A stretch of DNA of 40,679 nt from an uncultured Caldilineaceae bacterium (GTDB lineage Bacteria > Chloroflexota > Anaerolineae > Caldilineales > Caldilineaceae): NCBI GenBank assembly GCA_964551895.1, contig CAZKEX010000001.1, forward strand, positions 5,020 through 45,698. The letters run 5' to 3'. The position numbers and the translations under genes were made by a program. The notes under the pieces are model-generated. The model saw nothing but the letters and a program-made list of their open reading frames with translations. It searched no databases and had not been told where the DNA came from. Shown here piece by piece: positions 5,101-39,782 of this stretch; position 1 is the first letter of the stretch, and each line of letters begins with the position of its first letter.

Positions 5101-8100
5101 ATGTTGGTGATCACAAAGCGGAAGTAGACATCGCTGCCCGAGGCGGCCGTGGGGCCGGGGGCGCTGTCCGCGTCCTGCCAGGTGGCCTGGTTGTCCACGG
5201 AGACATACTTCTCGATGTCGATGGCGGGCTGGCCCGTGGCCGTGTAGTGGGCCGGGTCCGTGTCGCTGACCGTCAGGCTGTTGTACAGGCCTGTGGCCGT
5301 GGCCGTGTTGGTGTGCTGGCCCACCTGTGCGGGGGTGGCCCCATAGAAACAGGTGTGGGACTGGCCCGGCGCCAAGGGCGAGGGCACGTTGCAGCCGGTC
5401 AACGTGAAGACGTTATCCGTGACCGTGACGTTGGTCAGGGGCACGTTGCCGATGTTGGTGACCACGAAGCGGAAGAAGACATCCCCGCCAGCCACGGTCT
5501 GGGGACCGGGGGCCGCGTCCGCGTCCTGCCAGGTGACTTGGTTGTTGACCGAGACCAGCTTCTCCACGTCGATGGCCGGTCGGGGCGGAATGGAGGTGGC
5601 GGTGGCCGTCGGCGTCACTGTGGGGGTGTTGGTCGGCGTATTGGTGGGCGTGTTGGTCGGCGTGTTTGTCGGTGTGGGGGTGTGGGTGTTGGTCGGCGTC
5701 GGCGTCGGGGCCGGCGCGTTGTAGTTGGCGTCGTCCTGGTCCCGCAGGGTGAGGGCGTTGTATTGACCCGTCACCGAGGCCGTGTTGGTGTGCTGCCCAG
5801 CCTGGGCCGGGACCGGACCGACCCGGCAGGTTTGGCTCTGGCCCGGGGCCAGGGGGTTGGGGATGGGACAGTTGGTGATGGTATAGACGTTGTCAGTCAG
5901 GGTGACATTGGACAAGGGCACGTTGCCGTTGTTGGTCACCACGAAGCGGAAGTAGACATCCGCGCCATATTGGGCCGTGGGGCCAGGGGGCGTGTCCGCG
6001 TCATCCCAGGTGGCCTGGTTGTCCACGGAAACATACTTCTCCACGTCGATGGCCGGGGCCGAAGGAATGGGGGTGCGGGTGGCCGTGGGCGTGTTTGTCG
6101 GCGTGGGGGTGTTGGTGGGGGTGTTGGTTGGTGTGTTGGTTGGTGTGTTGGTGGGGGTGTTGGTCGGCGTCGGCGTAAAGGTGGCCGAAGGCACGTTGGT
6201 GGGGGTGAGGGTGGGCGTGTTCGTCGGCGTGTTCGTCGGCGTCAACGTGGGGGTGTTGGTGTTGGTGGGCGTCGGCGTGGGCGTGGGGGCCGGCGCGAAG
6301 TAGTTGGCCGGATCGCTGTCGCTCACCGTGATGGTCAGATATTGGCCCGTGGCGCTGGCCGTGTTGGTGTGCTGCCCTACCTGGGCCGGAACCGGTCCCA
6401 AGAAGCAGGTATGGCTCTGGCCCGGGTCCAGGGGATTCGGGATCAGGCAGTTGGAGATGGTGAACACGTCGTCTGTCAAGGTCACATTGCTCAGGGGCAC
6501 CAAGCCGATGTTGGTGACCACGAAGCGGAAGTAGACATCCTGCCCGGCCACGGCCTGGGGACCGGGGGCGCTGTCCGCGTCGGCCCAGGTCTGTTGCAGA
6601 TCGATGGAGACATATTTCTCCACGTCGATGGCCGGAGGCTGGAAGAGACCGGCGTCCCACTGCAACTGGTTGTCCCCGGCGGCGATGGCGATGGAGACCG
6701 TGTTGCCGTTGGCGTCGGCGTCGCTATCCTTGGCGTCGTCGTTGCCCCGGTCTTGATAGGTCAGTTGATAGCCGCTGGGCGGGCTGAAGTTCACGTAGTA
6801 GCTGCCCACCCGCAATCCGCAGAAGAGATAGTTGCCGCTGCCGTTGGTGTTCTGGGTGGCCTGGGAGATCCAGTTGCCATCCACCCGCTTGAAGAGCTCA
6901 ACAGGCACACCGGCCACGCCGACCTCGCCGGGCTGGTCCAGATTCTGGATGCCGTCCCGGTTGGCGTCCAGCCAGACCAGATCGCCCAGACAGGCCAGGG
7001 CCGTGTTGCCAAAGTTGACCCCAGTGGCGTTCTGGTCGGTCAGGGTGACGGCGTGGGAACCGTCGCCGCCAGGATAGGTCTGGCCCCAGTCGGCCCGCTG
7101 CACCTCGCTGACCACATAGGTCCCCGGCTCCAGATTGGCGAAGCTGTAGCTGCCATCTGCACCGGTTGTGGTGGTGCGGCTGATGTTGTTGGGGCCACCG
7201 GTCAGGCGGATGGTCCAGCCGGAGAGGCCCGGCTCGCCGCCGTCCCGCACGCCGTTGCCGTTGGGGTCGCTGAACTTGGCCCCGCTCAGGCTCAGGTTGC
7301 CCCGGTTACCAAAGCGCATCTCGGCGTATTGCACCGAGCCCAGGGTGATCTCCTGGGTCAGGGGCGTGGTGTTTTCGTAGCCGGGGTGGTTGGCCAACTG
7401 CTCCACCACCCGATATTGGCCGGGCAGCAGATCCGTGAAGACGACCATGCCGTCCGCGCCCGTGGTGCCGCCCCGGAACTGGGCCCAGGCCCCGTTCTTC
7501 CAGATATAGGTGGCGAACTGCCAACCGGGCAGGGTCGGTTCCGTGGCCTGATCCCAAAGCTGGTTGCCGTTTTGGTCCAGATATTTGCGCACAGCCAGGA
7601 TCGACTGTCGGGCGTTGCCAAAGTTGGCCCGCCACTGGGTCCACGGGTCCGCCGGGGTGCGGGTGCGGCTCTGGACCAGGGGCGTGCTATTGGTCCAGCC
7701 GCTCTGCTGGGTCTCGGCCAGGCTGTACGCCCCGTCCGCCACAATGCGCCCGGAGAAGATGGCGTTGCCGCTGGCATCGGTCAGCCCGGTGAAGACGCCG
7801 TCCGGGGTGGTGAGGGTGAAGCTCCAGTTGGCCAGGTTTGGCTCGTCCTCTTCCTGGATGCCGTTGAAGTTGCGGTCCTCAAACTTGTGGGCGATGACCA
7901 GGTTGGCCGACTCTTCCCAGGTGTGGGAGGCCAGGGCCTGGACCCGCACGGGCACATTTTGGCCCAGGACCAACCGCTGCCAACTGTCCGGCGCGGCCTG
8001 ATCCGTGAAGCGGGAGCCGGCCGGCAGGTTGACATCCGCCGAGGCGGTGAGGGTGGCGGTCCCGGCGCTGCTCTTGGTCAGGGTGAAGATGGCCTCGCCG

Positions 8101-8948
8101 TTGGCGTCGGTCACCCCGCTGGTGCGGTCGAGGGCGCCCGTGCTGGCGTTGACGGTCACGGTGTAGCCGGCCAGGGGCACGGCGCCCTTGGTCAACCGCA
8201 CGGTAAAGCTGTGGGCGGGCTGATAGGGCAAAAAGCCCGTGCTGGAGGCCGGGTCCACTGTGATCTGCACGTTCCCCGGCTGATATTCCGCCGGGGGCGA
8301 GGCGGGCACCGAGGCCAGAATGGCATTGTAGGCGTTCTTGACCGCATTGTCATAGGTGGTGTTGTAGATGGTGGCGTCGGCCTGGTTCAAGTTCCAGCCG
8401 TCGGTGAAATACCAGACCGCGGCCTGGCGGGCGGCCTGTTGAATGGCATTGTTCGGGGCCGGGGGATAGTTGGTCACCAGCCAGGCCACCCGCCAATCGG
8501 AGAAGAAGCCGCTGTCCAGACAGAAGCCCCGGTTATAGGCCCGGGAGTGATAGATGTCCGTACAGAAGGCATAGGCGATGTTGCCGCCGCCAAAGTCCAG
8601 CTTGCCCAAGGGCGTGTCCAAGATCTTGGTGGCCCCATCCTTCTGCAGATAGACCGAGATGGACGAGTTGGCCTGGGGGCTGTCCGTGGGGTTGATCCAC
8701 GTAGCATTGCCGCAGATGGCCGCGTCCGTGGCGTCGGGTTGCAGCAGGGAGAGGTTGGGTAGGATCGGGGAGATCAGCGGCTCGGCCTGGGCGGGGGCGT
8801 CCACCTGCTGGGGTGTTTCAGCTTGGGCAAAGGCCGGAAATCCCCCAGCGCTCAACGCTAAAACAAGGAACGCAAAAATGGCCATTATGACCAGACGCAT
8901 GGCCGTGCCGAATGGATAGACCGATTGCTTAAAACGTTGTGAACCCAT
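2178..8948 (-). CDS. Giant secreted surface adhesin: putative thioester (TQXA-type) domain + Ig-like + SdrD-B/Cna-B-like repeats + 7 DUF11-like repeats + GEVED-motif domain
   Basis: ORF 2178..9104. I placed the start at ATG 8948, with GGAGG upstream and a signal/TM segment [27 protein letters not shown] (Cys codon 8562-8564) and [11 protein letters not shown] (Gln codon 8424-8426) resemble the thioester-domain Cys and the TQxA(I/V)W motif. DxNGNGxxDxGEPGLxG-type SdrD-B repeats are present. Seven ~110-aa repeats each begin PAIDVEK(Y/L)VS (approx 3790-6640), joined by PT/TN linkers. SGEVEDFW is at 2610-2624. There is no LPXTG; the C-terminus ends VYLPMLVR. Confidence 0.85.
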
Positions 8949-9229
8949 GAGGAACCTCCTGGTAGATTTCGGAATGTTGACTAACGAACAGAGAAGAGGC
9001 AGGATATCCGATAGAGGTGTCAACACTGCCTGCTGTTGTGAAGGATGAACTGGAGTCGTGTGAAGAACGGATTGGACGGATGTTGAAACCTTAGAGAGTC
9101 CCAAATAGTACTTATGGGGGATTGCACTAAAGCTTTGTCAATCATAGCACAACCGGATAAGCTCCGCAATGAGTTCTTGGCAACTTTTGCTTACAATTCT
9201 GAATCAAATCTAAATAAGATTCTGCTCAA

Positions 9230-9371
9230 CTGAGATTGGTTTGAAACCTGCGCTTTTACGCTCTAGCCCGGTCCGTGACCGGGCAGGTCTACCCGGGAAG
9301 ATCCTTGAAAGCACACACTGGGTCATGGGCTCGGCTAGAGCGCAAAAGTGCAGGTTTCAAACCAATCTCAG
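9230..9371. repeat. 142-bp long hairpin / MITE-like element with 39-bp inverted arms
   Basis: Arm 9230-9268 (ctgagattggtttgaaacctgcgcttttacgctctagcc) is complementary to arm 9333-9371 (ggctagagcgcaaaagtgcaggtttcaaaccaatctcag) at 37/39 positions. The 64-nt loop contains its own small hairpin cccggtc-cgt-gaccggg. Confidence 0.85.
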
Positions 9372-9672
9372 TTTAGCGCAGGATTCGCATGTGATCCTTG
9401 TATTCTCTGTGTGTTCTCTGTGGCAAATTCGACACACAGATCTGGACTTACCCCAGGAATGTAAAGAAAATGCAAGGCCTTCCCTTATCAATTCTCAGCT
9501 TTAGTGATGTATAATGCCCATACTTCAATCTGACTATATCGATTGGGAAAAGAGCGTTTTGTCAAATTTTCATCCACAAACGTTTTCGATTTTTGCATGG
9601 ACTTTTTTTCAGCCAGCCGTGGGGAGGAAAAGAGCGTCCAGTCTTGTATAATTGAAACCCACTTAGTCGCCA

Positions 9673-10536: not shown

Positions 10537-10556
10537 AGAATCGATCATCGAAATGC

Positions 10557-10595
10557 AAAAAGGAGGTCCCGATCTGGATCGGAACCTCCTTTTTG
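10557..10595. terminator. Bidirectional rho-independent terminator between convergent genes
   Basis: The sequence aaaaggaggtcccgatc-tg-gatcggaacctccttttt is a GC-containing stem flanked by an A-run and a T-run. It sits between the LysM stop (10536) and the phosphotransferase stop (10635). Confidence 0.75.
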
Positions 10596-10634
10596 TATAG
10601 GGATCATTCGGGTTGAGGCCAGGTGGGGCCAGAC

Positions 10635-11738
10635 TCAAAGCGTGTCGATCCTGCCCCGATCCACGGCCAGGAGAGCGGTTTGGGCGCAGGCCCGCACCAC
10701 ATGGATCAGGGGCGCGAAGCGGGGATCTTGGGTGTGGCCCAGTGTGTAGCGGCGGTAGATCTGCTGCACGATCACGGCCAGCTTGACCAGGCCGTAGACG
10801 TAGTAAAAAACGGCGTGGTCAACGTTGCGCCCGCTGGCCTGGGCATACTGCTCGACCAACTCCCGGCGGGAGGGGTTGCCGGGCAGGGTGGTGGGGCTAA
10901 ACTGGAAGGTGCGCAGGATCTCCGGGTCGTTTGGCTCCACCCAATAGCCCAGGGAGGTGCCCAGATCCATCAGGGGATCCCCCACCGTGGCCATCTCCCA
11001 ATCCAACACCGCCCGGATCTGGGTCCAGTCCGCCGGGTCCAGGATCAGGTTGTCATATTTGTAGTCGTTGTGGATCAGACATGCCCCATCCCGTTCCTGG
11101 CGAGGCGGCGGCATGTGATCCGCCAGCCAGACCACGGCCCGATCCATCTCTGGGATCTCATCTGTGCGGGCTTTGGCATAGCGGGCGGCCCAGCCGTCGA
11201 TCTGGCGCTGGACGTAGCCCTGGGGCCGGCCCAGGTCAGCGAGACCAGCCGCGGCCACATCCACCTGATGCAGCTCGGCCATATTTTGCACAAAGGCGTG
11301 GGCAATTCCGGCCATCTGCTCGGTGCCCGGGCGCATGGCCGGGGGCATCTGCGCCCGCAGAATCACCCCGGCCACCCGTTCCATGATGTAAAAGGGCGCG
11401 CCCAGGACCGACTCGTCCTCGCAGTAAAGCAGGGCTTTCGGCGCCTTGGCATAGACCGGGCGCAGGTGGGAGAGGATGCGAAACTCCCGGCCCATATCGT
11501 GACCGCCCCGCACATTGGCCCCAAAGGGCGGGCGACGCAGAACCAGCTCCCGGCCCTTCTCCCCCTGGCCCAAACGCACCAAATAGGTCAAATTGGAAAA
11601 GCCCCGGGGAAACTGCTCCACAGCCAACGGGCCGTGGATGCCCCCCAACTGTTCATACAGATAGATCCCCAGCCGCTCCAAGTCTAGCTCTTCCCCGGCG
11701 CGGACGGGGCGGGCGTGGTCGATGAATTCGTCAAGCAT
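10635..11738 (-). CDS. Phosphotransferase (APH/ChoK-like kinase) family protein, ACAD10/11 N-terminal-domain type
   Basis: ORF 10635..11864. I moved the start to ATG 11738 (MLDEFIDHARPV...) because the upstream 42 codons (HCALCIVHCALCIV) are translated heptamer repeat. Catalytic loop LIHNDYKYDNLILD and VLDWEMATVGDP are present. It lies immediately downstream of an ACAD gene. Confidence 0.85.
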   Translation of the reverse strand: MLDEFIDHARPVRAGEELDLERLGIYLYEQLGGIHGPLAVEQFPRGFSNLTYLVRLGQGEKGRELVLRRPPFGANVRGGHDMGREFRILSHLRPVYAKAPKALLYCEDESVLGAPFYIMERVAGVILRAQMPPAMRPGTEQMAGIAHAFVQNMAELHQVDVAAAGLADLGRPQGYVQRQIDGWAARYAKARTDEIPEMDRAVVWLADHMPPPRQERDGACLIHNDYKYDNLILDPADWTQIRAVLDWEMATVGDPLMDLGTSLGYWVEPNDPEILRTFQFSPTTLPGNPSRRELVEQYAQASGRNVDHAVFYYVYGLVKLAVIVQQIYRRYTLGHTQDPRFAPLIHVVRACAQTALLAVDRGRIDTL

Positions 11739-11752
11739 AGGGGTCTCCGATT

Positions 11753-11871
11753 CAATGCACAATGGACAATGGACAATGCACAATGCACAATGCACAATGC
11801 ACAATGCACAATGGACAATGGCGGGTATAGCAAGTCCACCCATTGTGCATTGTGCATTGTGCATTGTCCAT
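11753..11871. repeat. Inverted pair of heptamer arrays (CAATGCA/CAATGGA x ~10 vs CATTGTG x ~4)
   Basis: Left array 11753-11821, spacer cgggtatagcaagtccac, complementary right array 11839-11871. It fills the ACAD-phosphotransferase intergenic gap. Confidence 0.9.
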
Positions 11872-11873
11872 TT

Positions 11874-13092: not shown

Positions 13093-13152
13093 TGGGTGGG
13101 TGGGTGGGTGGGTTGGTTGGTTTGTTGGTTGGTTGGTTGGTTGGTTGATTGG
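13093..13152. repeat. (GGGT)n/(GGTT)n low-complexity array upstream of ACAD start
   Basis: gtgggtgggtgggtgggtgggttggttggtttgttggttggttggttggttggttgattgg. The same TTGG/TTGATTGG-type arrays recur at 16435-16466, 37105-37171, 37955-37984, 39579-39640 and 39783-39805. Confidence 0.9.
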
Positions 13153-13214
13153 GGTGTGGGGGTATCTTACTCTTGGGGGGGCGGAGAGGTCAAGGTGGGG
13201 GATACGACATCACC

Positions 13215-13277
13215 TTTCCGGGAATGGGCCAACACCATCCACTTGACCCAAGATCGTTCCGGCCCTTTCCCGGAAAG
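13215..13277. repeat. ~63-bp hairpin repeat, 'CCGGGAATGGGCC' family, copy 1
   Basis: tttccgggaatgggccaa-N-acccaagatcgttccggccctttcccggaaag. The terminal ttccgggaa / ttcccggaa and gggcc / ggccc segments are inverted repeats. Related copies are at 16787-16850, 17024-17081 (inverted) and 17101-17163. Confidence 0.8.
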
Positions 13278-14912: not shown

Positions 14913-16424
14913 CTATGCGGCGTCCCGCTCGTAACCGGCCTGGGGCATGACGTCGATCTCGCCGATGTCGGCGCAGGATCGGTCCCGGAAGCGGGCGAAG
15001 AAGGCGAGCAGCCGGTAGACGTCGGCGAAGTTGGTGGCCAGCCCCACGCTGACCCGAATGGCGCTGACGCTGATGTTGTGGCGCTCCTGCATGATCTCCA
15101 CCAGTTGGTTGAAGTACAACCCCTCCCCACCCACAAAGAAAGTGCGCATGAGATCCCTGGGGATGGCGTAGGTGGTCTCGCCACAGCCGGGGTTGCAGAA
15201 ACAGCCCGTGCGCAAGGAGATGCGGGCCTTGGCGGCCAGATGCTCCACCTGGCCCGAGGAGATGGCCCCGCCGTCTGGGTCCAGCAGGTTGAGGGCCAGG
15301 GTGCCACCCCGGTCCATCAGGTTTTGGGGACCGTGGATCTGCACCAAGGGCTGGCCGTTGCTGTGGCGCAGGGCGGTCAACTCGTCCAGCAGCCAGCCGG
15401 TCAGACAGGCCACCCGCTGGCCGATGGTCTCCATGCCGATCTTGTCCAAATGGCGCAGACCGATCTCCACCGCGGGCAGGGTGAGATAGTTGACCGTGCC
15501 GTCCTCGAACCCAGCTTCCCCGTCCACCAAATAGTGACCATCCCCGCCCACAGAGGCGATGGTGATGGTGCCCCCGGCAAACCAGGGCCGCCGCAGACGG
15601 GTCAAGGCCTCCCGCCGGGCGATCAGCGCGCCCACGCCGGTGGGATAGCCAAACATCTTGTAAAAGGAGAGGCAGACGAAATCTGGCCGGTGCGCGCTCA
15701 GGTCCAAAGGATTGGTGGGGGCGAAGGCCGCGGCGTCCAACAACACGTCCCAGCCCAAGGCCCGGGCCTTTTCGATGAGGCCCAAAGGATGTTTTACCCC
15801 AGAAAAGTTGGATTGGGCTGGGAAGGCCAACAACCGAGGCGTCCCCCCATTTTTCTCAGACAAAACCGCGTTCAACGCGGCCTCGTCCAAGCGCAGGTCC
15901 GTCCCGGTGATGGGCAGATAGCTGACCCTGGCTCCCTTGGCCTTGGCAAATTCCCGGATGCCGTTGACCGAGTTGTGGTCGTCGGCGCAGAGGGCATAGT
16001 GGCCCCCCGGCCCAAAGGGATAGGCCTCGCCCACCAATTTGAGGGCGTTGCTGGCGTTGGCGGTGAAGATGACCGTGTATTCGGCCGGGTCGGCGTTGAA
16101 GTAGTGCAGCACGTAGGCCCGGGCCCGCTCCACCAGCTCGGTCATGGCGCTGGAGGTGGGGTTGTGGGAGTGGGGATTGCCAAAGACGCCCTTGCGCAAC
16201 ATCTCCATGTGGGCCGTGATCTGGCTGTCGGCGTAGAGGCCGCCGCCGGTATAGTCCAGATAGATATGGTTCTCCCGGTCCAGGCGCCCGTAGTCCGTGG
16301 CCCGCAGGTCATCCAAAATTTTAGTTTGAGAAAAGGTGGGATAGCGGGTCAAGAAATCGGCAAATGCCACCTCTTTCTGCGCGGACCCATAGGTGGGGCG
16401 GACATGGGAATGGTTGGTTGTCAT
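14913..16424 (-). CDS. Class V aminotransferase-fold PLP enzyme, MOCOS/ABA3 NifS-like (cysteine desulfurase/sulfurase type)
   Basis: ORF 14913..16859. I moved the start to ATG 16424 (AGGAG upstream; MTTNHSHVRPTYG...) because the upstream 145 codons are translated repeats. Supporting motifs are LSFYKMFGYPTGVGALI and the C-terminal RTGCFCNPGCGE active-site Cys motif. Confidence 0.85.
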   Translation of the reverse strand: MTTNHSHVRPTYGSAQKEVAFADFLTRYPTFSQTKILDDLRATDYGRLDRENHIYLDYTGGGLYADSQITAHMEMLRKGVFGNPHSHNPTSSAMTELVERARAYVLHYFNADPAEYTVIFTANASNALKLVGEAYPFGPGGHYALCADDHNSVNGIREFAKAKGARVSYLPITGTDLRLDEAALNAVLSEKNGGTPRLLAFPAQSNFSGVKHPLGLIEKARALGWDVLLDAAAFAPTNPLDLSAHRPDFVCLSFYKMFGYPTGVGALIARREALTRLRRPWFAGGTITIASVGGDGHYLVDGEAGFEDGTVNYLTLPAVEIGLRHLDKIGMETIGQRVACLTGWLLDELTALRHSNGQPLVQIHGPQNLMDRGGTLALNLLDPDGGAISSGQVEHLAAKARISLRTGCFCNPGCGETTYAIPRDLMRTFFVGGEGLYFNQLVEIMQERHNISVSAIRVSVGLATNFADVYRLLAFFARFRDRSCADIGEIDVMPQAGYERDAA

Positions 16425-16466
16425 GGGATCTCCTGGGATTGGTTGATTGGTTGATTGGTTGATTTG

Positions 16467-16609
16467 TGACTCTGCTGCAAAAAGCCAATTTTCACCGCAA
16501 AGACGCCAAGGACGCAAAGATTTCAAGGAAGATTGAGAAGAGAAATCTTGTTTTTCTTTGTGTTCTCTGCGCCTTTGCGGTGAATTCTTAGTTTTTGCAG
16601 CGGAGTCAC
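16467..16609. mobile_element. 143-bp imperfect-palindromic MITE-like element, copy A
   Basis: tgactctgctgcaaaaagcc...tagtttttgcagcggagtcac. It equals the reverse complement of 39641-39782 with only 2 mismatches. Terminal inverted repeats are gactctgctgcaaaaa / tttttgcagcggagtc. It is flanked by TTGATTGG arrays. Confidence 0.85.
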
Positions 16610-16664
16610 TTGTTGATTGGTTGGGCGGGGGATTAAGAGATTGGGGGATTTGAACACGGAACAC

Positions 16665-16728
16665 GCCATTCGCCATTTGCCATTCGCCATTCGCCATTCG
16701 CCATTCGCCATTCACCATTCGCCATTTG
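16665..16728. repeat. Heptamer array (GCCATTC)x9
   Basis: gccattcgccatttgccattcgccattcgccattcgccattcgccattcaccattcgccatttg. The same unit occurs in hypF at 25889-26023 and 26818-26853. Confidence 0.9.
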
Positions 16729-16956
16729 TCCAAGCATACGCCATGAGCCGGGGGGGATGCAAACCGAGGATTCTGTGGAGCGCAGTCATTCCGGGAATGG
16801 GCCAAGGCTATTCCCTCGACCCAGGATCGTCCCGGCCCCTTCCCGGAATGCTCACACACCTAAAGCGCCGCCCCCCACCCCAGGAAGCCCGCATACTGTG
16901 TCCCGGTTCGATCTGGGGTATTATGCAGAACCCAACCGCCCACGCATTGGGGCAGG

Positions 16957-19129: not shown

Positions 19130-19196
19130 CAATCTCTTAATCTCTCAATCTCCCAATCTCGCCCCGGAGATTGGGAGATTGGGAGATTAGGAGATT
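19130..19196. repeat. Inverted pair of octamer arrays (AATCTCNN x4 / GAGATTGG x4) forming a ~30-bp stem
   Basis: caatctcttaatctctcaatctcccaatctc-gccccg-gagattgggagattgggagattaggagatt. The last unit provides AGGAG 5 nt upstream of the murJ ATG. Confidence 0.9.
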
Positions 19197-22004: not shown

Positions 22005-22102
22005 TAGCCACGAAGAAGCGAAGACGAGAAGGTCCACGAAGAGAGGGGATTTCTTCCCTCTTTTTCTTCGTGGACCTTCTCATCTTCGCTTCTTCGTGGC
22101 TA
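22005..22102. terminator. ~98-bp near-perfect palindrome between convergent genes (likely bidirectional terminator / repeat-family member)
   Basis: tagccacgaagaagcgaagacgagaaggtccacgaagagaggg ... ccctctttttcttcgtggaccttctcatcttcgcttcttcgtggcta, with ~40-bp arms. It lies between the stop at 21990 and the hypE stop at 22146. Confidence 0.7.
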
Positions 22103-22145: not shown

Positions 22146-23210
22146 TCAACAGATCCGCGGCAACTGCTCCCCACTCAGCATGTCCACCACCCGCATGCCG
22201 CCGATGCGGCTGCGCAGGAAGACCCGGCCCAGATGCTCGTCCACCACCTCGCCGATGATGGCGGCTTCCTCGCCAAGGGGATGGGCGCGCATGATTGCCA
22301 AGGCCTCGTCCGCCGCTTCCGGGGCGACGATGGCCAGGAACTTGCCCTCGTTGGCCACGTAGAGGGGGTCGAAGCCCAGGATCTCGCAGGCCCCCCGCAC
22401 GTCCTCCCAGATCGGGATCTCCTTCTCCACCAGACGCATACCCAACCGGGCCTGGACCGCAATCTCGTTCAACGTGCTGGACAGGCCGCCCCGGGTCGGG
22501 TCCCGCAGGACGTGGACCTTCTCCCCCAGCCCGGCCAGCAGATCCCCAACCAACCCGTTCAGGGCCGCGGAATCGCTCTCCAAGGTGGTCTCAAACTCCA
22601 GCCCCTCCCGCACGCTCATGATGGCGATGCCGTGGACGGCGATGGCCCCGTTGATCAGGATCTTGTCCCCGGGCCGGGCGCGCCGGGGGGCCACGTCGAT
22701 GCCCTCGGGGATGCGCCCGATGGCCGAGGTGTTGATATAGATGCCGTCGCCCTTGCCCCGGTCCACCACCTTGGTGTCCCCGGTGACGATGGAGACCCCG
22801 GCGGCCCGGGCCGCGGCCTGCATAGACTGCACGATCTGCCACAGGGTCTGCATGGGCAGCCCTTCCTCGATGATCATGCCCACGGAGAGGACTTGGGGCG
22901 CCGCGCCGCACATGGCAATGTCGTTCACCGTGCCGTGGATGGACAGGGAGCCGATGTCACCGCCGGGGAAGAAGAGGGGGTGGATCACAAAGGAGTCGGT
23001 GGAAAAGGCCAGCCGTCCGGCCTCCACCCGCAAGATCGCGCCGTCGTTGAGCTGTTCCAGCGCCACGTTGTCAAAGGCGGGCACAAACATCTTCTCGATC
23101 AACATCTGGCTCATGCGCCCGCCGCCGCCGTGGGCCATGAGTATATGGGGATAGTCGCTGATGGGAATGGGGCAGGCCGCGCCGGTGAAGTCGGGTAGGG
23201 TACGGGACAT
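22146..23210 (-). CDS. hypE: Hydrogenase maturation carbamoyl dehydratase HypE
   Basis: 354 aa with an AIR-synthase-like fold. Motifs ILMAHGGGG and the diagnostic C-terminal PRIC are present. Confidence 0.95.
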   Translation of the reverse strand: MSRTLPDFTGAACPIPISDYPHILMAHGGGGRMSQMLIEKMFVPAFDNVALEQLNDGAILRVEAGRLAFSTDSFVIHPLFFPGGDIGSLSIHGTVNDIAMCGAAPQVLSVGMIIEEGLPMQTLWQIVQSMQAAARAAGVSIVTGDTKVVDRGKGDGIYINTSAIGRIPEGIDVAPRRARPGDKILINGAIAVHGIAIMSVREGLEFETTLESDSAALNGLVGDLLAGLGEKVHVLRDPTRGGLSSTLNEIAVQARLGMRLVEKEIPIWEDVRGACEILGFDPLYVANEGKFLAIVAPEAADEALAIMRAHPLGEEAAIIGEVVDEHLGRVFLRSRIGGMRVVDMLSGEQLPRIC

Positions 23211-23241
23211 GGTAGGGAAAAAAGTCCTTCCTGGGTTGGGG

Positions 23242-23337
23242 AAGGAGTAATGAGTAATGGGTAATTGTGGTATGGGAGAAACTTCAGCAATCTACAAGTC
23301 CCCGCCACCACCCATTACTTATTACTCCTTACTCATT
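23242..23337. repeat. Inverted pair of TAATGAG/TAAGGAG heptamer arrays between hypD and hypE
   Basis: Left array aaggagtaatgagtaatgggtaatt (23242-23266); right array cccattacttattactccttactcatt (23311-23337). The right array overlaps the hypD 3' end and encodes its last codons M-S-K-E-stop. Confidence 0.9.
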
Positions 23338-24428
23338 TCGATAGTCACGCGCCCATACTGATAATACGCCGCGCACGCGCCTTCGGACGAGACCATGGGC
23401 GCGCCGAGGGGCCGGTCCGGGGTGCAGAGGGTGCCGAAGGCGGGGCAGTCGTTGGGCTTTTGGAGGCCCTGCATGATCTCGCCGGCGATGCAGATCTCCG
23501 ATTCTTCGGCGGTGATGCCGGCGACCTGGAAGCGGGCTTCGGCGTCGAAGGCGGCATACTCCGGGCGCAGGCTGTAGCCGCTGGCCGGGATGACCCCGAT
23601 CCCCCGCCACGCCCGATCTGTGACCTGGAAGACCTGGCCCATGAGGGTCTGGGCAGGCAGGTTCCCCGCCCGGTTGACCGCCCGCACGTACTGATTTTCC
23701 ACGCCCCAACGCCCCTCTTCCAGCATGGCCACGGTCATGTAGATGCCTTGGAGCAGGTCCAAGGGTTCAAAGCCGGTGATGACCAAAGGCGTGCGGTATT
23801 GCTCGGCGATGGGCTCGTACTCCCAATAGCCCATGATGGCGCAGACGTGGCCAGCGGCCAGAAAGCCCTGGACCAGGCTGTTCGGCGATCCCAAGATGGC
23901 CTGCATGGCCGGGGGAACCAGCACGTGGGAGCTGAGAATGGAGAAGTTGGTCACGCCCAAATGGTTGGCCTGCCAGACCGCGGCCGCGTTGGCCGGGGCC
24001 GTGGTCTCGAAGCCCACGGCAAAGAAGACCACCTGTTTGTCCGGGTTCTGCTGGGCCAGCTTCACCGCGTCCAAGGGCGAATAGACCATGCGCACATCCC
24101 CGCCCCCGGCCTTGACACTGAGCAGGTCGGTGGTGGAGCCGGGCACCCGCATCATGTCGCCGAAGGAGGTGAAGATCACCTCCGGGCGCTGGGCGATGGC
24201 CACGGCCTTGTCGATCAGCTCCAGGGGGGTCACACAGACCGGGCAGCCGGGGCCGTGGACCAGGGTGATCAGCTCGGGCAACATGCGGTCGATGCCAAAC
24301 TTGATCAGCGTGTGGGTCTGCCCGCCGCAGATCTCCATCAGCGTCCACGGTCGGGTGGTGATCTGCTCGATGGCCCGGATAAATTTTTGCACATCGGCTT
24401 CGTTGCGGTATTCGTCGATGAATTTCAT
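23322..24428 (-). CDS. hypD: Hydrogenase maturation factor HypD
   Basis: 368 aa. [29 protein letters not shown] and the C-terminal [10 protein letters not shown] are canonical HypD motifs. Confidence 0.95.
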
Positions 24429-24446
24429 GGGATTCCTTATGTAAAA

Positions 24447-24530
24447 AATGAGTAAGGCGTAATGAGTAATTTTGCGTTGGAAAGCACTTGCCGACGAAAC
24501 AACGCAAATTACTCATTACGCCTTACTCGT
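24447..24530. repeat. Inverted pair of TAATGAG/TAAGGCG heptamer arrays between hypC and hypD
   Basis: aatgagtaaggcgtaatgagtaattttgcgtt (24447-24478) is almost perfectly complementary to aacgcaaattactcattacgccttactcgt (24501-24530). Confidence 0.9.
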
Positions 24531-24539
24531 TTGCCCTTA

Positions 24540-24794
24540 CTACGGTTGCGCAATCTCCAACTCCGCCAACTCCTCCATTTCGGCCAGGTATTGGAAGACG
24601 ATCTTGGCCTCCTCCTCGTCTACCTGGCTGATGGCGAAGCCCACGTGGACGAGTACATAGTCGCCGACCTGGGCTTCGGGGGTGTAGGCTAGACAGACAT
24701 CCTTCTGGATGCCGGAGAAGTTGACCCGGCCCATGGGCATGCCATCTGGGTTGGGGTCAATACGGGTGATCTTGCCGGGTACGCCGAGACACAT
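24540..24794 (-). CDS. hypC: Hydrogenase maturation chaperone HypC/HupF
   Basis: ORF 24540..24926. I moved the start to ATG 24794 (AGGAG upstream), giving the obligatory N-terminal MCLGVPG. Length is 84 aa. Confidence 0.92.
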   Translation of the reverse strand: MCLGVPGKITRIDPNPDGMPMGRVNFSGIQKDVCLAYTPEAQVGDYVLVHVGFAISQVDEEEAKIVFQYLAEMEELAELEIAQP

Positions 24795-24813
24795 GATGGT
24801 TCTCCTAAATTCG

Positions 24814-25010
24814 TAGGTGCGGTTTTTAACCGCACAAATGAGTTGGGTGCGCTCAAAATGAGTTGGCGGAGTCGGCATCCCTTCGACGGGCTCAGGACAC
24901 CGCCTCAGATGCCGAGCCGTTCGCATTTGAGAATGCTCACTCCTCGGCGTAACTCATCTTGAACACACCCAAATGAGTCAAGCGGATCGTGCGGTTGAAA
25001 ACCGCACCTA
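24814..25010. mobile_element. ~197-bp MITE-like element with 22-bp terminal inverted repeats, inserted between hypF and hypC
   Basis: TIRs are taggtgcggtttttaaccgcac (24814-24835) and gtgcggttgaaaaccgcaccta (24989-25010), matching at 21/22 positions. Each TIR is itself a small hairpin. The right TIR contains the hypF stop codon (25008-25010). Confidence 0.7.
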
Positions 25011-27434
25011 CCCAAGCCTTGCCGCGGCCACGGCCACCTGCCCCAGGCTGATCCCCCCATCGTTGGGCGGAACCTGGCGGTGGAGCAGCGCCTCAAAACC
25101 GGCCCGGCGCAAGGCCTGGGCGGTCTGCTCGGTGAGCCGTCGATTTTGGAAGCAGCCGCCGCTGAGGGCGATGCGGGGGTCGCCCACGGCTTGGGCCACG
25201 GCCACGGCCCCGGCCACCAAGCCATTGTGGAAACGTCCCGCCATGATACCGGGTTCCACGCCCCGGCGCAAGTCGGAGAGGATGGCGGCGATGGTGGGGC
25301 GCCAGTCGAGGAGGAGGGGATTGGGGATTGGGGATTGGGGATTGGGGATTGGGGGATTGGGGATTGGGGGATTGGAAGATTGGGAGATTGAGAAGGGATA
25401 GGCGCCGGTTTCCGATGGATCGGCGGCGTATTCTAGATCCATGGCGGCTTGGCCTTCGAAGGTGACCTGTTGGCGCAGGCCGATGAGGGCGGCGATGGCG
25501 TCGAAGAGACGACCGGCGCTGGTGGTGAGGGGGGCGTTGATCCCCTTGCGCAACATCTGGCCCAGGACGCGCCGCTCGGTGGCGGTCATGGCCTGGAGGG
25601 GGGGCAGGTCCATCTGATTCAACGCCTCTTCGCCCATGATCTCCCAGAGCAGGGCCAGGGCCACTCGCTTGGGCTGGCGCACGGCCGCATCCCCACCGGG
25701 CAGGCGGAAGGGGCGCAGATGGCCCACCCGCTCCACCCCCGCCGCATCCCCCAGCAGAAACTCCCCGCCCCAGATCGTGCCGTCCGGCCCGTAGCCCGTG
25801 CCGTCCCAAATGATCCCCAAGGCCGAACCGTCCACCCCGTTGTCCGCCAAACAGGCGGCCAGGTGGGCGTGGTGGTGTTGGACAGGGACCAATGGCGAAT
25901 GGCGAATGGCAAATGGTGTAGCGACTGATTGGTTAATCGGTTGATTGGTTGATCGACAATCTCCCAATCTCCCAATCTCTCCCTCGCCATTCGCCATTCG
26001 CCATTCGCCATTCGCCATTCGCGTGGACAGATAGTCCGGGTGCAGGTCGTGGGCGATGGCGGTGGGGGTGGCTGCGTAGAGGCGGAGGAAGTCGGCGATG
26101 ACGCGGTGGAAGGCGGCCAGGGACTCGGCGCTTTCCAGGTCGCCGATGTGTTGGCTGAGGAAGACGTTGCGGCCCACGCTGAGGGCGACGGTGTTTTTGA
26201 GGTGGGCGCCCACGGCCAGGATGGTGGGGGCGGGCCGGGGCAGAACCACGGGCAGGGGGGCGTAGCCCCGCGCCCGGCGCAGGAACTGGGACTGGCCGTC
26301 CACGATCCACAGCACGCTGTCGTCCACGTGCCGGGCGATGGGGCGGTTGTGGGTCAGGAAGGCGTCGGCGATGTGGCCCAGACGGTCCGCGGCCTCGTCG
26401 TTGTCGATGCAGATAGGTTCGTCGCTGAGGTTGCCGCTGGTGGCGACGAGGGGACGGTCAACCGACCGACACAATAGATGGTGGAGCGGGGTGGACGCCA
26501 CCATGATCCCGACGTTGGGATTTCCTGGGGCCACGGCACGGGCCAAGACACGGCTTTTTTCGTCCTTTTCCAAAAGAAGAATGGGGGCTTCTGCGGATAG
26601 CAGAAGCGCTTCGGCCTGTTGGGAGATGATGGCAAAGTGACGGGCCTGGGCCACGTCCCGGACCATGACGGCCAGGGGTTTGTGGGGACGGGGCTTGCGG
26701 TCCCGCAGACGTTGGACAGCGAGGGCGTTGGTGGCATCGGCCATGAGGTGGAAGCCGCCGAGACCTTTGACGGCGACGATTTGGCCAGCCTTCAACGCAT
26801 CGACTGCCCCCTGCAGTGCCTCGCCATTCGCCATCCGCCATTCGCCATTCGCCCCAAATCTGAGCGCTGGCCCGCACACCGGGCAGGCGTTGGGCTGGGC
26901 GTGGAAGCGGCGGTTGAGCGGGTCGGTGTATTCGGCGTGGCAGGCGGGGCAGAGGGGGAAGCCGGCCATGGTGGTGTTGGGCCGGTCATAGGGCAGGGCT
27001 TGGACGATGGTGAAGCGGGGGCCGCAGTCGGTGCAGTTGGTGAAGGCGTAGGCGTGGCGGCGGTCCGCGGGGTCCAACACCTCGGCCAGGCAGGCCGGGC
27101 AGGTGGCCAGGTCGGGCAGGACGAGGACGGTCTTGGGGCCGACGTGGTCGCTGTGGCGGATCTGGAAATCGGCGAAATCGGCGGGGTCGAGCTGTTCGGT
27201 GGTAAATTCCTGGATGCGGGCGTGGGGCGGGTGGTCCCGGCGGATGCGGGCCACGAAGCCGTCCAATTGGGCCGGGTCGCCCTGGGCCTCGATGAAGACG
27301 CCCCGGCTGTCGTTGATCACCCAGCCGGTGAGACCCAGATCCCCGGCCAGTCGGTAGACAAAGGGGCGAAAGCCCACCCCCTGCACCGCCCCCCGAATCT
27401 CGATCCGCACCCGCTGGGGACGCTCAACAGCCAT
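25008..27434 (-). CDS. hypF: Carbamoyltransferase HypF (acylphosphatase + 2 Zn-finger + YrdC + Kae1-like domains) carrying three in-frame repeat-encoded segments
   Basis: 808 aa with GGAGGG upstream of ATG 27434. Domain motifs: acylphosphatase GAVQGVGFRPFVYRLA; CPACLAEV...CTDCGPRFT and CPACHAEY...CPVCGP; VAVKGLGGFHLMADA; VQHHHAHLAAC. The repeat-derived peptides are ANGEWRMANGE, MANGEWRMANGEGEIGRLGDCRSTNQPINQSVATPFAIRHSP and SNPPIPNPPIPNPQSPIPNP. Confidence 0.93.
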   Translation of the reverse strand: MAVERPQRVRIEIRGAVQGVGFRPFVYRLAGDLGLTGWVINDSRGVFIEAQGDPAQLDGFVARIRRDHPPHARIQEFTTEQLDPADFADFQIRHSDHVGPKTVLVLPDLATCPACLAEVLDPADRRHAYAFTNCTDCGPRFTIVQALPYDRPNTTMAGFPLCPACHAEYTDPLNRRFHAQPNACPVCGPALRFGANGEWRMANGEALQGAVDALKAGQIVAVKGLGGFHLMADATNALAVQRLRDRKPRPHKPLAVMVRDVAQARHFAIISQQAEALLLSAEAPILLLEKDEKSRVLARAVAPGNPNVGIMVASTPLHHLLCRSVDRPLVATSGNLSDEPICIDNDEAADRLGHIADAFLTHNRPIARHVDDSVLWIVDGQSQFLRRARGYAPLPVVLPRPAPTILAVGAHLKNTVALSVGRNVFLSQHIGDLESAESLAAFHRVIADFLRLYAATPTAIAHDLHPDYLSTRMANGEWRMANGEGEIGRLGDCRSTNQPINQSVATPFAIRHSPLVPVQHHHAHLAACLADNGVDGSALGIIWDGTGYGPDGTIWGGEFLLGDAAGVERVGHLRPFRLPGGDAAVRQPKRVALALLWEIMGEEALNQMDLPPLQAMTATERRVLGQMLRKGINAPLTTSAGRLFDAIAALIGLRQQVTFEGQAAMDLEYAADPSETGAYPFSISQSSNPPIPNPPIPNPQSPIPNPLLLDWRPTIAAILSDLRRGVEPGIMAGRFHNGLVAGAVAVAQAVGDPRIALSGGCFQNRRLTEQTAQALRRAGFEALLHRQVPPNDGGISLGQVAVAAARLG
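25317..25393. repeat. (GGGGATT)n/(GAGATTGG) array inside hypF coding sequence
   Basis: ggggattggggattggggattggggattgggggattggggattgggggattggaagattgggagattgag. On the minus strand it is translated in-frame as SISQSSNPPIPNPPIPNPQSPIPNP. Confidence 0.9.
25889..26023. repeat. Composite repeat inside hypF: inverted (GCCATTC)n arrays flanking TTGATTGG and CAATCTCC units
   Basis: Order is ccaatggcgaatggcgaatggcaaatgg, then gattggttaatcggttgattggttgatcg, then acaatctcccaatctcccaatctc, then cgccattcgccattcgccattcgccattcgccattcgcg. It is read in-frame between the conserved HypF blocks HPDYLST and VQHHHAH. Confidence 0.9.
26818..26853. repeat. (GCCATTC)x5 array inside hypF coding sequence
   Basis: gcctcgccattcgccatccgccattcgccattcgcc. 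It encodes ANGEWRMANGE in the linker between the second Zn finger and the YrdC-like domain. Confidence 0.9.
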
Positions 27435-29158: not shown

Positions 29159-29184
29159 GCATAGAATGAGTGTGTCATCGTTCA

Positions 29185-29230
29185 CCCCTCGGCCCCGTTC
29201 GACATGAACTCAGCCGAACGGGGCCGGGGG
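29185..29230 (+). terminator. GC-rich hairpin downstream of lipoprotein gene (terminator/attenuator candidate, no clear U-tract)
   Basis: cccctcggccccgttcg-N13-cgaacggggccggggg, with a 12-bp perfect core stem. Confidence 0.4.
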
Positions 29231-29311
29231 ATGAGCGATGACGAATCAAGGGAGGCAGCGTCCGTGTTGTGTTGATCCAGTCTCGATTTTCTACAACCTA
29301 AGGGGCGTAAA

Positions 29312-33618: not shown

Positions 33619-33810
33619 CTTGTGTCAGCAACAGGCCCCCCGGCCCCCAATTCTGGGGGAGGTCGTGGACTGTTCCCCCCAAGGTTGGGGGGCTAGGGGG
33701 GCGGGGGAGCAGGCGGTCGCCTTGCGTTAGCAACAGGCCCCCCGGCCCCCAACTTTGGGGGAGGTCGTGGACTATTCCCCCCAAAGTTGGGGGCTAGGGG
33801 GGCAGGGGAG
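33619..33810. repeat. Tandem repeat, 2 x ~102 bp (~90% identical), each with two C-run/G-run hairpins
   Basis: Unit 1 is 33619-33720 and unit 2 is 33721-33810 (cttg[t/c]gt[c/t]agcaacaggccccccggcccccaa..tgggggaggtcgtggact.ttccccccaa.gttggggg.ctaggggggc.ggggag). It is GC-rich within the low-GC island. Confidence 0.9.
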
Positions 33811-33899
33811 TGAACGATGACGATGGAGAGGCAGGAACCTAATCTCTGCCTCTCGTATTGACCAGAGATCGATTTCCAACATCAGATTGGGAGCCTATT

Positions 33900-36291: not shown

Positions 36292-36391
36292 CCGACCAGA
36301 TTCTTGCACAAAACACAAGAATCTGGTCGGCGCGAATAAGAAACGAAGGCGCAAAAAACACAGAATTCTGTGTTTTTTGCGCCTTCGTTTC
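36292..36391. terminator. Two strong hairpins between convergent genes (island end / hypB end)
   Basis: Hairpin 1 is ccgaccagattcttg...caagaatctggtcgg (36292-36330). Hairpin 2 is a perfect 52-bp palindrome, gaaacgaaggcgcaaaaaacacagaa|ttctgtgttttttgcgccttcgtttc (36340-36391). Confidence 0.75.
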
Positions 36392-36412
36392 CTAACGGCT
36401 AAATCGTTTTCC

Positions 36413-37104: not shown

Positions 37105-37171
37105 AACCAACCAACCAACAAACCAACCAACAAACCAACAAACAAACCAACCAACCAATCAACCAACCAAC
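37105..37171. repeat. (CCAA)n/(CAAA)n array between SDR and hypB
   Basis: aaccaaccaaccaacaaaccaaccaacaaaccaacaaacaaaccaaccaaccaatcaaccaaccaa. Its right end encodes the SDR C-terminal codons Q-L-V-G and the stop codon. Confidence 0.9.
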
Positions 37172-37932
37172 TGCCCGCCATCCACCACAAACGTGGCCCC
37201 GGTGGTGAAGCTGGATGCGTTGGAGGCCAAATAGAGGGCGGTACCGGCCAGTTCCGAGGCGTCGGCCATGCGGCCCTGGGGGATGGCCCTTACCACGGCG
37301 TTGTAGATCTGCTCGTTCTGCCACAGGGCGGCGCTGAATTTGGTTTTGACAAAACCGGGGGCAATGGCGTTGACCCGGATCTGCTGGCCGGCCAGTTCTC
37401 CGGCCAGGACTTCGGTGAGCATGAGCACCGCGGCCTTGCTGACGCAGTAGACGCCCATATTCTGGATGGGCGTCTTGCCCGCCACGGAGGCCATGTTGAT
37501 CACGCTGCCGCCCCCCCGCTGGGCCATACTGGCGGCCACGGCCTTGACCATGCGGAAGTAGCCGACCACGTTGACATCCATGATCTTGGCCCAATGGCTC
37601 TCCTCCGCGGTCATGATGGGGCCGAAGTGGGGGTTGGTGGCGGCGTTGTTGACCAGAATGTCCACGCCGCCGAAGGCGCCGACCGTGCGGGCAACCAGGG
37701 CATCCACGGCCTCCACATCCCCGGTGTGGGCGGCTACGGCCAGGATCTCCCCGCCGATCTCGGCACGGAGCTGGGCGGCGGCCTCGTCCAGATCCGCCTG
37801 CTTGCGGCTGGCGATCACCACCCGCGCCCCGGCCCCGACAAAAGCCTTGGCAATCTCAAAACCGATGCCCCGGGATCCGCCGGTGACAATGGCGACTTTG
37901 CCGGTGAGGTCGAAGAGGGAGGGGTTGGGCAT
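37159..37932 (-). CDS. Short-chain dehydrogenase/reductase (SDR) family oxidoreductase
   Basis: ORF 37159..38040. I moved the start to ATG 37932 ([24 protein letters not shown]). Motifs [12 protein letters not shown] and the YCVSK catalytic Tyr-x3-Lys are present. Confidence 0.9.
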
Positions 37933-38048
37933 GGGATTGGCTCCGCAAAAAGTGGATTGGTTGATACGTTGATTGGTTGATTGTAGACCAGAAGCGGGGA
38001 ATTGGGAAAACCAGCGCCTCTCTCGGCCCTGGAAATTCACCCCTCGTC

Positions 38049-39578: not shown

Positions 39579-39640
39579 GGTTGGGTTTGGTTGGGTTGGT
39601 TGGGTTGGTTGGTTGGTTGGTTTGTTGGTTTGTTTGTTGG

Positions 39641-39782
39641 TGACTCTGCTGCAAAAACTAAAAATTCACCGCAAAGGCGCAGAGAACACAAAGAAAAACA
39701 AGATTTCTCTTCTCAATCTTCCTTGAAATCTTTGCGTCCTTGGCGTCTTTGCGGTGAAAATTGGCTTTTTGCAGCAGAGTCA
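39641..39782. mobile_element. 143-bp imperfect-palindromic MITE-like element, copy B (inverted relative to copy A)
   Basis: Its reverse complement is identical to 16467-16609 except for 2 positions. It is flanked by the GGTT/TTGG arrays at 39579-39640 and 39783-39805. Confidence 0.85.

Follow-up and report, generated by a model that had tools for sequence, protein, structure and literature searches.

The 40,679-nucleotide (nt) stretch of Caldilineaceae DNA analysed here (contig CAZKEX010000001.1; henceforth the window) carries on its minus strand an intact open reading frame (ORF) for the carbamoyltransferase HypF (hypF, 25008..27434; 808 amino acids, aa), within which three tandem arrays of 7- and 8-nt units are translated in frame with the rest of the enzyme. 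The product shows the domain order typical of HypF, i.e. an acylphosphatase domain, two zinc-finger motifs, a YrdC/Sua5-like domain and a Kae1-like domain, and the five Pfam HypF domains (acylphosphatase, two zinc fingers, YrdC/Sua5-like and both Kae1-like subdomains) are all detected far above their cut-offs. Its sequence matches those of three full-length HypF crystal structures, 3VTH, 4G9I and 3TSP, with E-values ranging from 3.6e-178 (3VTH) to 2e-136, and an AlphaFold2 model built from a 72-sequence alignment (mean predicted local distance difference test score, pLDDT, 84; predicted template-modelling score, pTM, 0.86) superposes on 3VTH with template-modelling (TM) scores of 0.85/0.91. 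The catalytic and metal-binding motifs, namely the CxxC pairs, KGxGGFH, HHHAH and NDGG, are all conserved, with C112/C115/C134/C137/C162/C165/C184/C187, K223-F228, Q519-H524 and N791-G793 being invariant in the 72-sequence alignment. Downstream of hypF and likewise on the minus strand lie intact hypC (~24540-24800), hypD (23322-24428) and hypE (22146-23210) genes, in a gene map that was built from the G+C bias at third codon positions (GC3) together with Pfam matches. Given the intact ORF, the domains, the structural match, the invariant motifs and the hypC, hypD and hypE neighbors, the gene looks functional as far as sequence and model can tell. The window has a G+C content of 61% and its closest relatives are Caldilineaceae and Anaerolineae metagenome-assembled genomes (MAGs) of the Chloroflexota; a cyanobacterial origin, at which its GGGGATT units hinted, was accordingly discarded.

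These observations also bear on whether the arrays could be mis-assembled metagenome repeats, or the gene a decaying one; a non-expressed pseudogene had been named in the preliminary description as a finding that would refute its proposal. The source is apparently a metagenome assembly, the exact HypF protein was found once, and short repeats are hard to assemble. However, independent assemblies of two related lineages have arrays at the same three sites, the ORF retains all catalytic residues and the adjoining hyp genes are intact, and we regard either possibility as extremely improbable.

Tandem Repeats Finder (TRF) places the three arrays almost exactly where the preliminary description had put them, and its output and the translation concur with the claim of in-frame short arrays at three sites; the peptides quoted there, ANGEWRMANGE, MANGEWRMANGEGEIGRLGDCRSTNQPINQSVATPFAIRHSP and SNPPIPNPPIPNPQSPIPNP, are all present in the translated HypF. 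Chance is ruled out as their origin: (GCCATTC)3 with up to 2 mismatches was observed 14 times against 0.00 expected from shuffled controls, (GGGGATT)3 six times against 0.01, and (CCAATCNN)3-type sequences 10 times, again against 0.01. As the arrays in other long ORFs of the window precede the real start codons, hypF is its only gene with internal 7/8-nt arrays, and it has three of them. A 7-nt unit regains its phase after three copies and all three of its frames yield one cyclic heptapeptide (EWRMANG, AIRHSPF or NPQSPIP, depending on the unit), so that only the total length of an array matters for the reading frame. The units are, moreover, free of stop codons in the orientation in which hypF uses them: GATTGGTT contains a TGA and is represented in hypF solely by its stop-free reverse complement, and the units GTAAGGA and GAGTAAT, which have a stop codon in one orientation, are confined to gaps between genes in this window. 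For the comparisons below we used 72 Chloroflexota HypF proteins (59-69% identical to the query, plus the close relatives). DNA was available for two close relatives, L001 (protein P0002) and L066 (protein P0122), with both of which the window hypF shares 87-88% nucleotide identity outside the arrays (76% at third codon positions), and L001 and L066 are 95% identical to each other.

Site 1 (26821..26853, minus strand; TCGCCAT x4.7 by TRF, equivalent to (GAATGGC)4.7 on the coding strand) encodes ANGEWRMANGE at the start of the YrdC-like domain, in place of a native beta-hairpin. The segment is 17 aa long, where the family norm is 18 aa (RLALWTPAGExxAEGDEA in Chloroflexota homologues), and the model shows a beta-hairpin here (strands 191-195 and 198-202) that leads into a helix, with mean pLDDT values of 76-92 per 10-residue block across residues 181-210. 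From alignment and model, site 1 is thus best described as a replacement of native sequence of similar length rather than a net insertion. The preliminary description had it as an insert in the linker after the second zinc finger, a placement that its family-typical length and confidently modelled hairpin and helix contradict; the same length rules out a scheme in which all three sites are insertions. The window, L001 and L066 have site-1 arrays of equal length with the same internal GGCGGAT variant and differ among themselves by just 1-2 substitutions, fewer than in the flanks, such that the array length is unchanged over ~12% nucleotide divergence. A homologue lacking the array (L068) reads GCC GGC GAA TCC at this position, i.e. 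one GGCGAAT unit, and arrays of the window's own heptamer recur at site 1 in the more distant HypF proteins of L067 (65% identity) and the Anaerolineae member L034 (~51%), the hypF of which begins near 2977 and has (ATGGCGA)5 followed by (ATACGCA)n. These distant arrays fit repeated expansion from a native seed, although one old origin could also account for them. Folding predicts no hairpin in the nucleic acid at site 1.

Site 2 is a 135-bp composite (25889-26023) of four arrays, all read on the minus strand, in which one inverted pair encloses another. On the 5' side of the mRNA, the outer arm (25984..26022; TCGCCAT x5.6 by TRF, a perfect run) reads (GAATGGC)5.6 on the coding strand and encodes MANGEWRMANGE. 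It is followed by a first inner arm (25957..25979; CAATCTCC x2.9, coding strand (GGAGATTG)2.9, encoding GEIGRLG), a second inner arm (25926..25953; TGATTGGT x3.5, coding strand (AACCAATC)3.5, encoding STNQPINQS) and the outer arm on the mRNA 3' side (25891..25916; AATGGCG x3.7, coding strand (GCCATTC)3.7, encoding PFAIRHSP). The AACCAATC orientation is the only stop-free one for that unit. The outer arms, recovered as the inverted-repeat pairs I16, I17 and I23, are 96-100% complementary and form a perfect stem of 26 bp, inside which the GGAGATTG and AACCAATC arms pair through GAUUGG/CCAAUC in the RNA fold. A 156-nt segment around the site folds as RNA at -83.6 kcal/mol against an average of -45.4 for shuffles (z = -9.6) and as DNA at -45.2 kcal/mol (z = -7.9). 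The strong mRNA/DNA hairpin that had been predicted for the composite is thereby borne out, as is its location where HypF normally has a short linker: the stretch between HPDYLST and VQHHHAH is 46 aa long here as against 12-13 aa in most HypF proteins from many phyla. The HMMER alignment to 3VTH breaks at precisely this point (query 475/514 against 3VTH 472/477), and residues 487-503 have pLDDT values <50.

Site 3 (25316..25390, minus strand; GGGGATT x10 by TRF with 7- and 8-nt units mixed) encodes SNPPIPNPPIPNPQSPIPNP. Its coding-strand units, AATCCCC, AATCCCCC and CAATCTCC, all run in one direction, leaving the G-rich strand as the template, and no hairpin is predicted for the array (minimum free energy 0.0 kcal/mol). 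In the window as well as the relatives, the site-3 units follow the pattern CCAATC plus 1-2 bases. The corresponding region is 8-52 residues long among the 72 Chloroflexota homologues, and pLDDT falls <50 at residues 692-701; sequence comparison and model therefore indicate an insertion in a low-confidence loop. Taken over the three sites, the alignment of orthologs proposed in the preliminary description points to lineage-specific insertions at sites 2 and 3, with site 1 departing from this expectation, and the structural model divides them in the same way, the low confidence at sites 2 and 3 being consistent with flexible loops and site 1 being a confident beta-hairpin.

Across the three close lineages, sites 2 and 3 show a far higher turnover than the gene around them, with every version in frame. 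Site 2 occupies the same codon in the window, L001 and L066 with differing content: in L001 and L066 it is a single plain hairpin, (GGGGATT)n...(AATCCCC)n, of -64.7 and -63.7 kcal/mol respectively, as opposed to the window, where an inner (GGAGATTG)n/(AACCAATC)n hairpin is enclosed by outer arms of (GAATGGC)n/(GCCATTC)n. Between L001 and L066 themselves, one arm is longer by a unit and the second arm shorter by one. At site 3 the lineages differ in both unit type (CAATCCC versus CAATCAAC) and copy number, the window being 15 nt (7 + 8) longer than L001, and L066 having (CAATCAAC)4 in its place. Both arms of site 2 have switched unit jointly, and at the protein level MANGEWR has no tie with FAIRHSP. 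The pairing therefore belongs to the nucleic acid, with the peptide as a by-product.

This turnover raises the question of a phase-variable contingency locus, as advanced in the preliminary description, in which slippage by 7 or 8 nt toggles hypF ON and OFF and renders hydrogenase maturation stochastic across the population. The arrays do consist of in-ORF tandem units whose length is not a multiple of three, and hence a one-unit slip at site 2 or 3 would frameshift the gene; copy numbers at these sites have changed between lineages only ~5% diverged, and therefore slippage does occur; and heptamer tracts drive phase variation in Haemophilus (PMC8262952). The alleles, however, speak otherwise. 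We searched public metagenomes for the conserved blocks on either side of site 2 by means of a degenerate-codon pattern, permitting a spacing of 60-120 nt and leaving the frame unconstrained. The exact flanks of site 2 found no match; all 64 of the loci recovered by the degenerate pattern had a spacing divisible by three, about a dozen of them with a clear 7-8-nt periodicity. Pooled with the genome loci, 68/68 distinct site-2 alleles are in frame, as are all orthologues examined, and no OFF (frameshifted) allele occurs among these or in the three close lineages, at the level of the assembly consensus. The copy number at site 1 is fixed, and four MAG accessions have the L001-lineage protein in identical form, with the same arrays. 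The perfect runs are short, the longest being ~5.6 units in the site-2 arm and ~5 units at site 3, where 8-nt units interrupt the array. The arrays of this genome are, furthermore, mostly intergenic, so their genome-wide spread accounts for the copies in hypF, and HypF is a housekeeping maturation enzyme rather than a surface or restriction-modification protein. With the assembled alleles in frame and the site-1 array fixed, on/off switching of hypF is thus unsupported, and we consider such a locus very unlikely.

Beyond the close relatives, the same three places vary in length across the 72 Chloroflexota HypF proteins, from 10-59 aa at site 1 and 12-68 aa at site 2 to the range given above for site 3, and many of these proteins have low-complexity peptides of the inverted-repeat type, such as GDWRLEI...PISNLQSPI, TKDEGRRTKDEG...LRPSSFV and VNGERLTVNGER...DHRSPITDH. 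The DNA of L068 forms hairpins at both sites 2 and 3 from different units (-65 and -54 kcal/mol), and the HypF of L034 has in-frame repeat peptides in two or three further loops (EIRNTQYAIANA, PPFAIHHSPFI). Cyanobacterial genes show comparable events at the linker between the YrdC and Kae1 domains: Microcoleus HypF (L047, 2992-5628) has a long in-frame (TEPIPTL/TEPIPKL)n array, and in Pseudanabaena (L049, 2965-6589) an insertion sequence with its transposase gene at this linker splits hypF into two ORFs. Stretches matching the repeat-derived peptide patterns number >584 in the genome collection. The heptamer itself is also widespread, with intergenic inverted (CGAATGG)n/(CCATTCG)n arrays in L052-L065 from Alphaproteobacteria, Saprospiraceae (L057), Lysobacterales (L059) and Acidobacteriota (L063); of the Alphaproteobacteria, the isolate Microvirga brassicacearum (L055, 3001-3153) has the inverted arrangement (CGAATGG)n - spacer - (CCATTCG)n, and in L052 inverted heptamer arrays are nested with a second unit.

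Could the inserts, then, have been adopted for a function, either as flexible linkers tuning the HypF-HypE interaction or domain motions, or as an mRNA hairpin for translational pausing or transcript processing? The repeated occupation of the same three sites across the Chloroflexota proteins would favor this, as would the conservation of site 1 above its flanks and its modelled structure, the exceptional stability of the site-2 hairpin and the presence of similar hairpins between hypC, hypD and hypE, where a role in transcript stability is plausible. Yet the sequence, unit type, length and even presence of a hairpin vary freely between lineages, most HypF proteins, including those of solved structure, are without inserts, and the model has low confidence for those at sites 2 and 3. 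Only 7/59 long site-2 inserts of other HypF genes fold with z <= -3, which eliminates the hairpin as a general feature of long inserts at this site and hence argues that it is not generally selected there. An adopted function accordingly appears very unlikely to us. Separately, significant site-2 hairpins were seen in three unrelated metagenomic hypF genes (L086, L107 and L128; z = -7.4, -3.5 and -3.0).

The wider setting of the arrays is provided by the rest of the window, where ~20 arrays lie within 40 kb and nearly every gap between genes has a short-repeat array or an inverted pair; all 7/8-nt arrays outside hypF are located between genes or upstream of true start codons. A plus-strand (CGCCATT)9 array (16664..16726), made of the site-1/site-2 unit (GCCATTC), is non-coding, since translation and Pfam matches put it upstream of the true aminotransferase start. 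The unit of a site-2 inner arm recurs between genes as (GATTGGTT)3.5 (16437..16464, plus strand, by TRF) and as a further GATTGGTT array at 37955-37983. The inverted pair (CAATCTCY)4/(GGAGATTG)4 (19130..19196; pair I11, 93% complementary, 6 nt apart) fills the gap of two co-directional genes. Within the hyp cluster, hypE and hypD are separated by an inverted-array hairpin of (GAGTAAT)n/(CATTACT)n (23237..23335; pair I19), and hypD and hypC by an inverted-repeat hairpin with 27-nt arms of AATGAGT-type units (24446..24532; pair I13, 96% complementary). Other gaps have (CAATGCA)n/(CATTGTG)n (11753-11872) and (GTAAGGA)n/(CCTTACT)n (2065-2167). The proposal that the units in hypF are those of the intergenic arrays consequently stands for GCCATTC, GATTGGTT and GGAGATTG but fails for GGGGATT, runs of which with at least three units are confined to hypF in this window, its 8-nt relative GGAGATTG alone being intergenic. 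Being free of stop codons, such arrays stretch the ORFs at 14913-16859 (aminotransferase), 10635-11864 (APH-type phosphotransferase) and 37159-38040 (short-chain dehydrogenase) far upstream of their true starts, and so constitute a trap for the automatic calling of start codons that yields repeat peptides such as WRMANGEW in predicted proteins. A scan of the window against Rfam returned no matches.

Several other repeats were noticed in the window. A palindromic element of ~145 bp, which looks like the miniature inverted-repeat transposable element (MITE) type, is present in two intergenic copies (16466-16609 and 39641-39782) with arms that are 78-81% complementary and the common sequence GTGACTCTGCTGCAAAAA...CGCAAAGA; one copy is bordered by short arrays of GATTGGTT and CGCCATT, the other by TTGG and TCCCCGA. 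Further intergenic palindromes occur at 9224-9377, 22005-22102 (38-nt arms, 97% complementary), 36337-36394, 10544-10607, 29174-29242 and 13214-13277, and tetranucleotide arrays at gene boundaries comprise (GGTT)14.5 (13095-13152), (AACC)16.8 (37105-37171) and (TTGG)13 (39587-39641). The gap between the genes ending at 33618 and starting at 33858 has a 102-bp tandem duplication (33619-33810; x1.9, 91% matches) with CCCCCAACTTTGGGGG-type palindromes, and a 2308-aa ORF on the minus strand (2178-9104) has a 354-bp repeat (x2.9, 76% matches) and many G/T-rich periodicities of 12-36 nt. Next to hypF, a small hairpin GTGCGGTT(N3-4)AACCGCAC appears twice (24817-24836 and 24988-25006), flanking the 210-nt spacer between hypF and hypC. 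GTGCGG likewise follows the hypF stop codon in L001, and in L066 an extra gene (DUF1186/SEC-C, 312 aa) separates hypF from hypC.

Turning to the origin of the site-2 composite, one candidate is a mobile palindromic element of MITE-like or Rickettsia-like type that was inserted whole, with the loop of an older hairpin as a possible target, instead of growing in place. A palindrome of this size lying in frame in a surface loop of a conserved enzyme, between conserved blocks and at pLDDT <50, has the hallmarks of the Rickettsia palindromic elements (PMC10969869). Its nested build, in which outer GAATGGC arms enclose a GATTGG/CCAATC hairpin, would agree with insertion, as would the occurrence in L001 of just the GGGGATT-type hairpin at the same codon, the joint switch of unit in both arms and the inverted arrays of the same heptamer in several phyla. 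Against this, a BLAST search with the composite, covering the window (40 kb of this genome) and all fetched loci, recovered no second full-length copy but only array-level matches of <=40 nt, on which ground the composite was rejected as a dispersed element. When the junctions are aligned with L001, no separate target-site duplication is visible, and no terminal inverted repeats distinct from the arrays are evident, the outer arms being inverted arrays themselves. In addition, the unit composition of site 3 drifts in place, and the native sequence at site 1 already has one GGCGAAT unit. We hence view wholesale insertion as rather unlikely.

The explanation that we consider likely is that the hypF arrays are passengers that have settled where the protein is permissive and that purifying selection holds in frame. 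The Caldilineaceae genome would be rich in arrays drawn from a small set of related 7-8-nt units (a CCAWTC core with 1-2 further bases), often as inverted hairpin pairs, and such arrays may have arisen or landed at three places of HypF that tolerate change, where they simply get translated. Site 1 would have overwritten a surface beta-hairpin without altering its length; at site 2, the 12-aa linker from HPDYLST to VQHHHAH would have gained ~34 aa; and at site 3, a variable loop in the Kae1-like subdomain would have grown by ~10-20 aa. Purifying selection on HypF would then eliminate variants with length changes that are not multiples of three. Growth probably proceeded by replication slippage of units favored by the genome, possibly seeded at site 1 by the native GGCGAAT, and the paired arms, because both change unit together, point to a process acting on the nucleic acid. 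On this account, the arrays would have no regulatory role inside hypF.

Certain observations weigh against so simple an account. Three arrays lie in one 2.4-kb gene versus none in the other ~30 genes of the window, a striking concentration. The joint switch of unit in the two arms of site 2 and the inverted arrays of this heptamer in several phyla are hints of something beyond simple slippage, be it an active process or selection acting on the nucleic acid. It is unlikely that a perfect mRNA stem of 26 bp is entirely neutral, and pausing or cleavage by a double-strand-specific RNase at the stem is conceivable. Assemblies also report majority alleles, among which minority frameshift variants are invisible. 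At the far end of these considerations lies the unlikely possibility that the 7-8-nt inverted arrays of Anaerolineae and Caldilineae are actively propagating or host-templated hairpin DNA, which would have repeatedly colonized the three HypF loops and other proteins as coding palindromes made of microsatellites, and inside genes might cause programmed pausing, cleavage at the 26-bp stem or frameshift switching of hydrogenase maturation at low frequency.

If the arrays are indeed passengers, hypF would offer an example of non-coding repeat DNA entering a conserved enzyme and then being filtered by selection, with three fates in one gene: a structured hairpin overwritten, a large palindromic insert in a loop and a one-directional array. 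No new regulatory system is revealed by these arrays. They do seed spurious protein matches across phyla and appear to flag positions where HypF tolerates change, which could be of use in engineering.

Finally, these arrays find parallels in several known systems. Among the longer simple repeats of bacteria, heptamers form the most frequent class (PMC4679880, PMC4692102), and the closest counterpart of the intergenic arrays lies in the short tandemly repeated repetitive (STRR) sequences of cyanobacteria (GGGGA(T/C)T in Anabaena/Nostoc), which are likewise dispersed 7-nt tandem units, mostly intergenic, with some inverted pairs and an intragenic minority (PMC4692102). In Anabaena, 68% of the GGGGATT arrays are intergenic; they are under-represented on coding strands and form quadruplexes in vitro (PMC4692102). 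The site-3 unit GGGGATT, with its G-rich strand as template, agrees with the avoidance of the coding strand by G-rich arrays in that organism (PMC4692102). Cyanobacterial heptamer arrays are found within 50 bp of gene ends, and paired inverted GGGAATC arrays are known from Xanthomonas (PMC4692102). The present case differs from the cyanobacterial STRR in its Chloroflexota (Caldilineaceae) host, mixed 7/8-nt units and nested two-unit hairpins, and in having three translated arrays in a single conserved enzyme, at positions where such occupation recurs throughout the clade. Our literature search found no description of such repeats in Chloroflexota. With the contingency loci of Haemophilus and Neisseria (PMC8262952) the hypF arrays share an in-frame tandem unit not divisible by three; they are set apart by the lack of observed ON/OFF polymorphism, the short or interrupted tracts, the housekeeping nature of the gene and the mainly intergenic distribution of the repeats. 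More remote analogies are offered by mitochondrial genes of Nematomorpha, with inverted repeats of which both arms are translated (PMC6649704), and by Borg proteins, in which fast-evolving tandem repeats add disordered segments (PMC9879509). Both cases are unlike hypF in concerning other genomes and other repeat architectures. In Borgs, the repeat units inside ORFs are reportedly multiples of three, as opposed to the 7-8 nt in hypF.

The nearest parallel for site 2 is with the Rickettsia palindromic elements, in-frame palindromes in conserved genes (Ogata et al., 2000, Science 290:347; Ogata et al., 2002, Genome Res 12:808; summarized in PMC10969869). In both instances a translated palindrome, ~100-150 bp long in Rickettsia, where it is read as tolerated selfish DNA, and 135 bp with ~34 extra aa in hypF, lies in frame in a conserved housekeeping gene, at fold-compatible positions in the former and in a low-confidence loop in the latter. 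The Rickettsia elements, however, are dispersed families with conserved full-length sequences, as against a composite of tandem 7-8-nt units with no second full copy found in the window or the fetched loci; in hypF the unit type and copy number shift between close relatives, and sites 1 and 3 are not palindromes. Thus, hypF fails the tested feature of contingency loci (OFF alleles) as well as that of the Rickettsia type (dispersed full-length copies), and combines microsatellite-type arrays with coding palindromes in a Chloroflexota enzyme. What its insert does share with the Rickettsia element is the status of tolerated coding 'junk', and it would extend both the Rickettsia picture of selfish DNA in coding genes and the heptamer repeats of cyanobacteria to the Chloroflexota.

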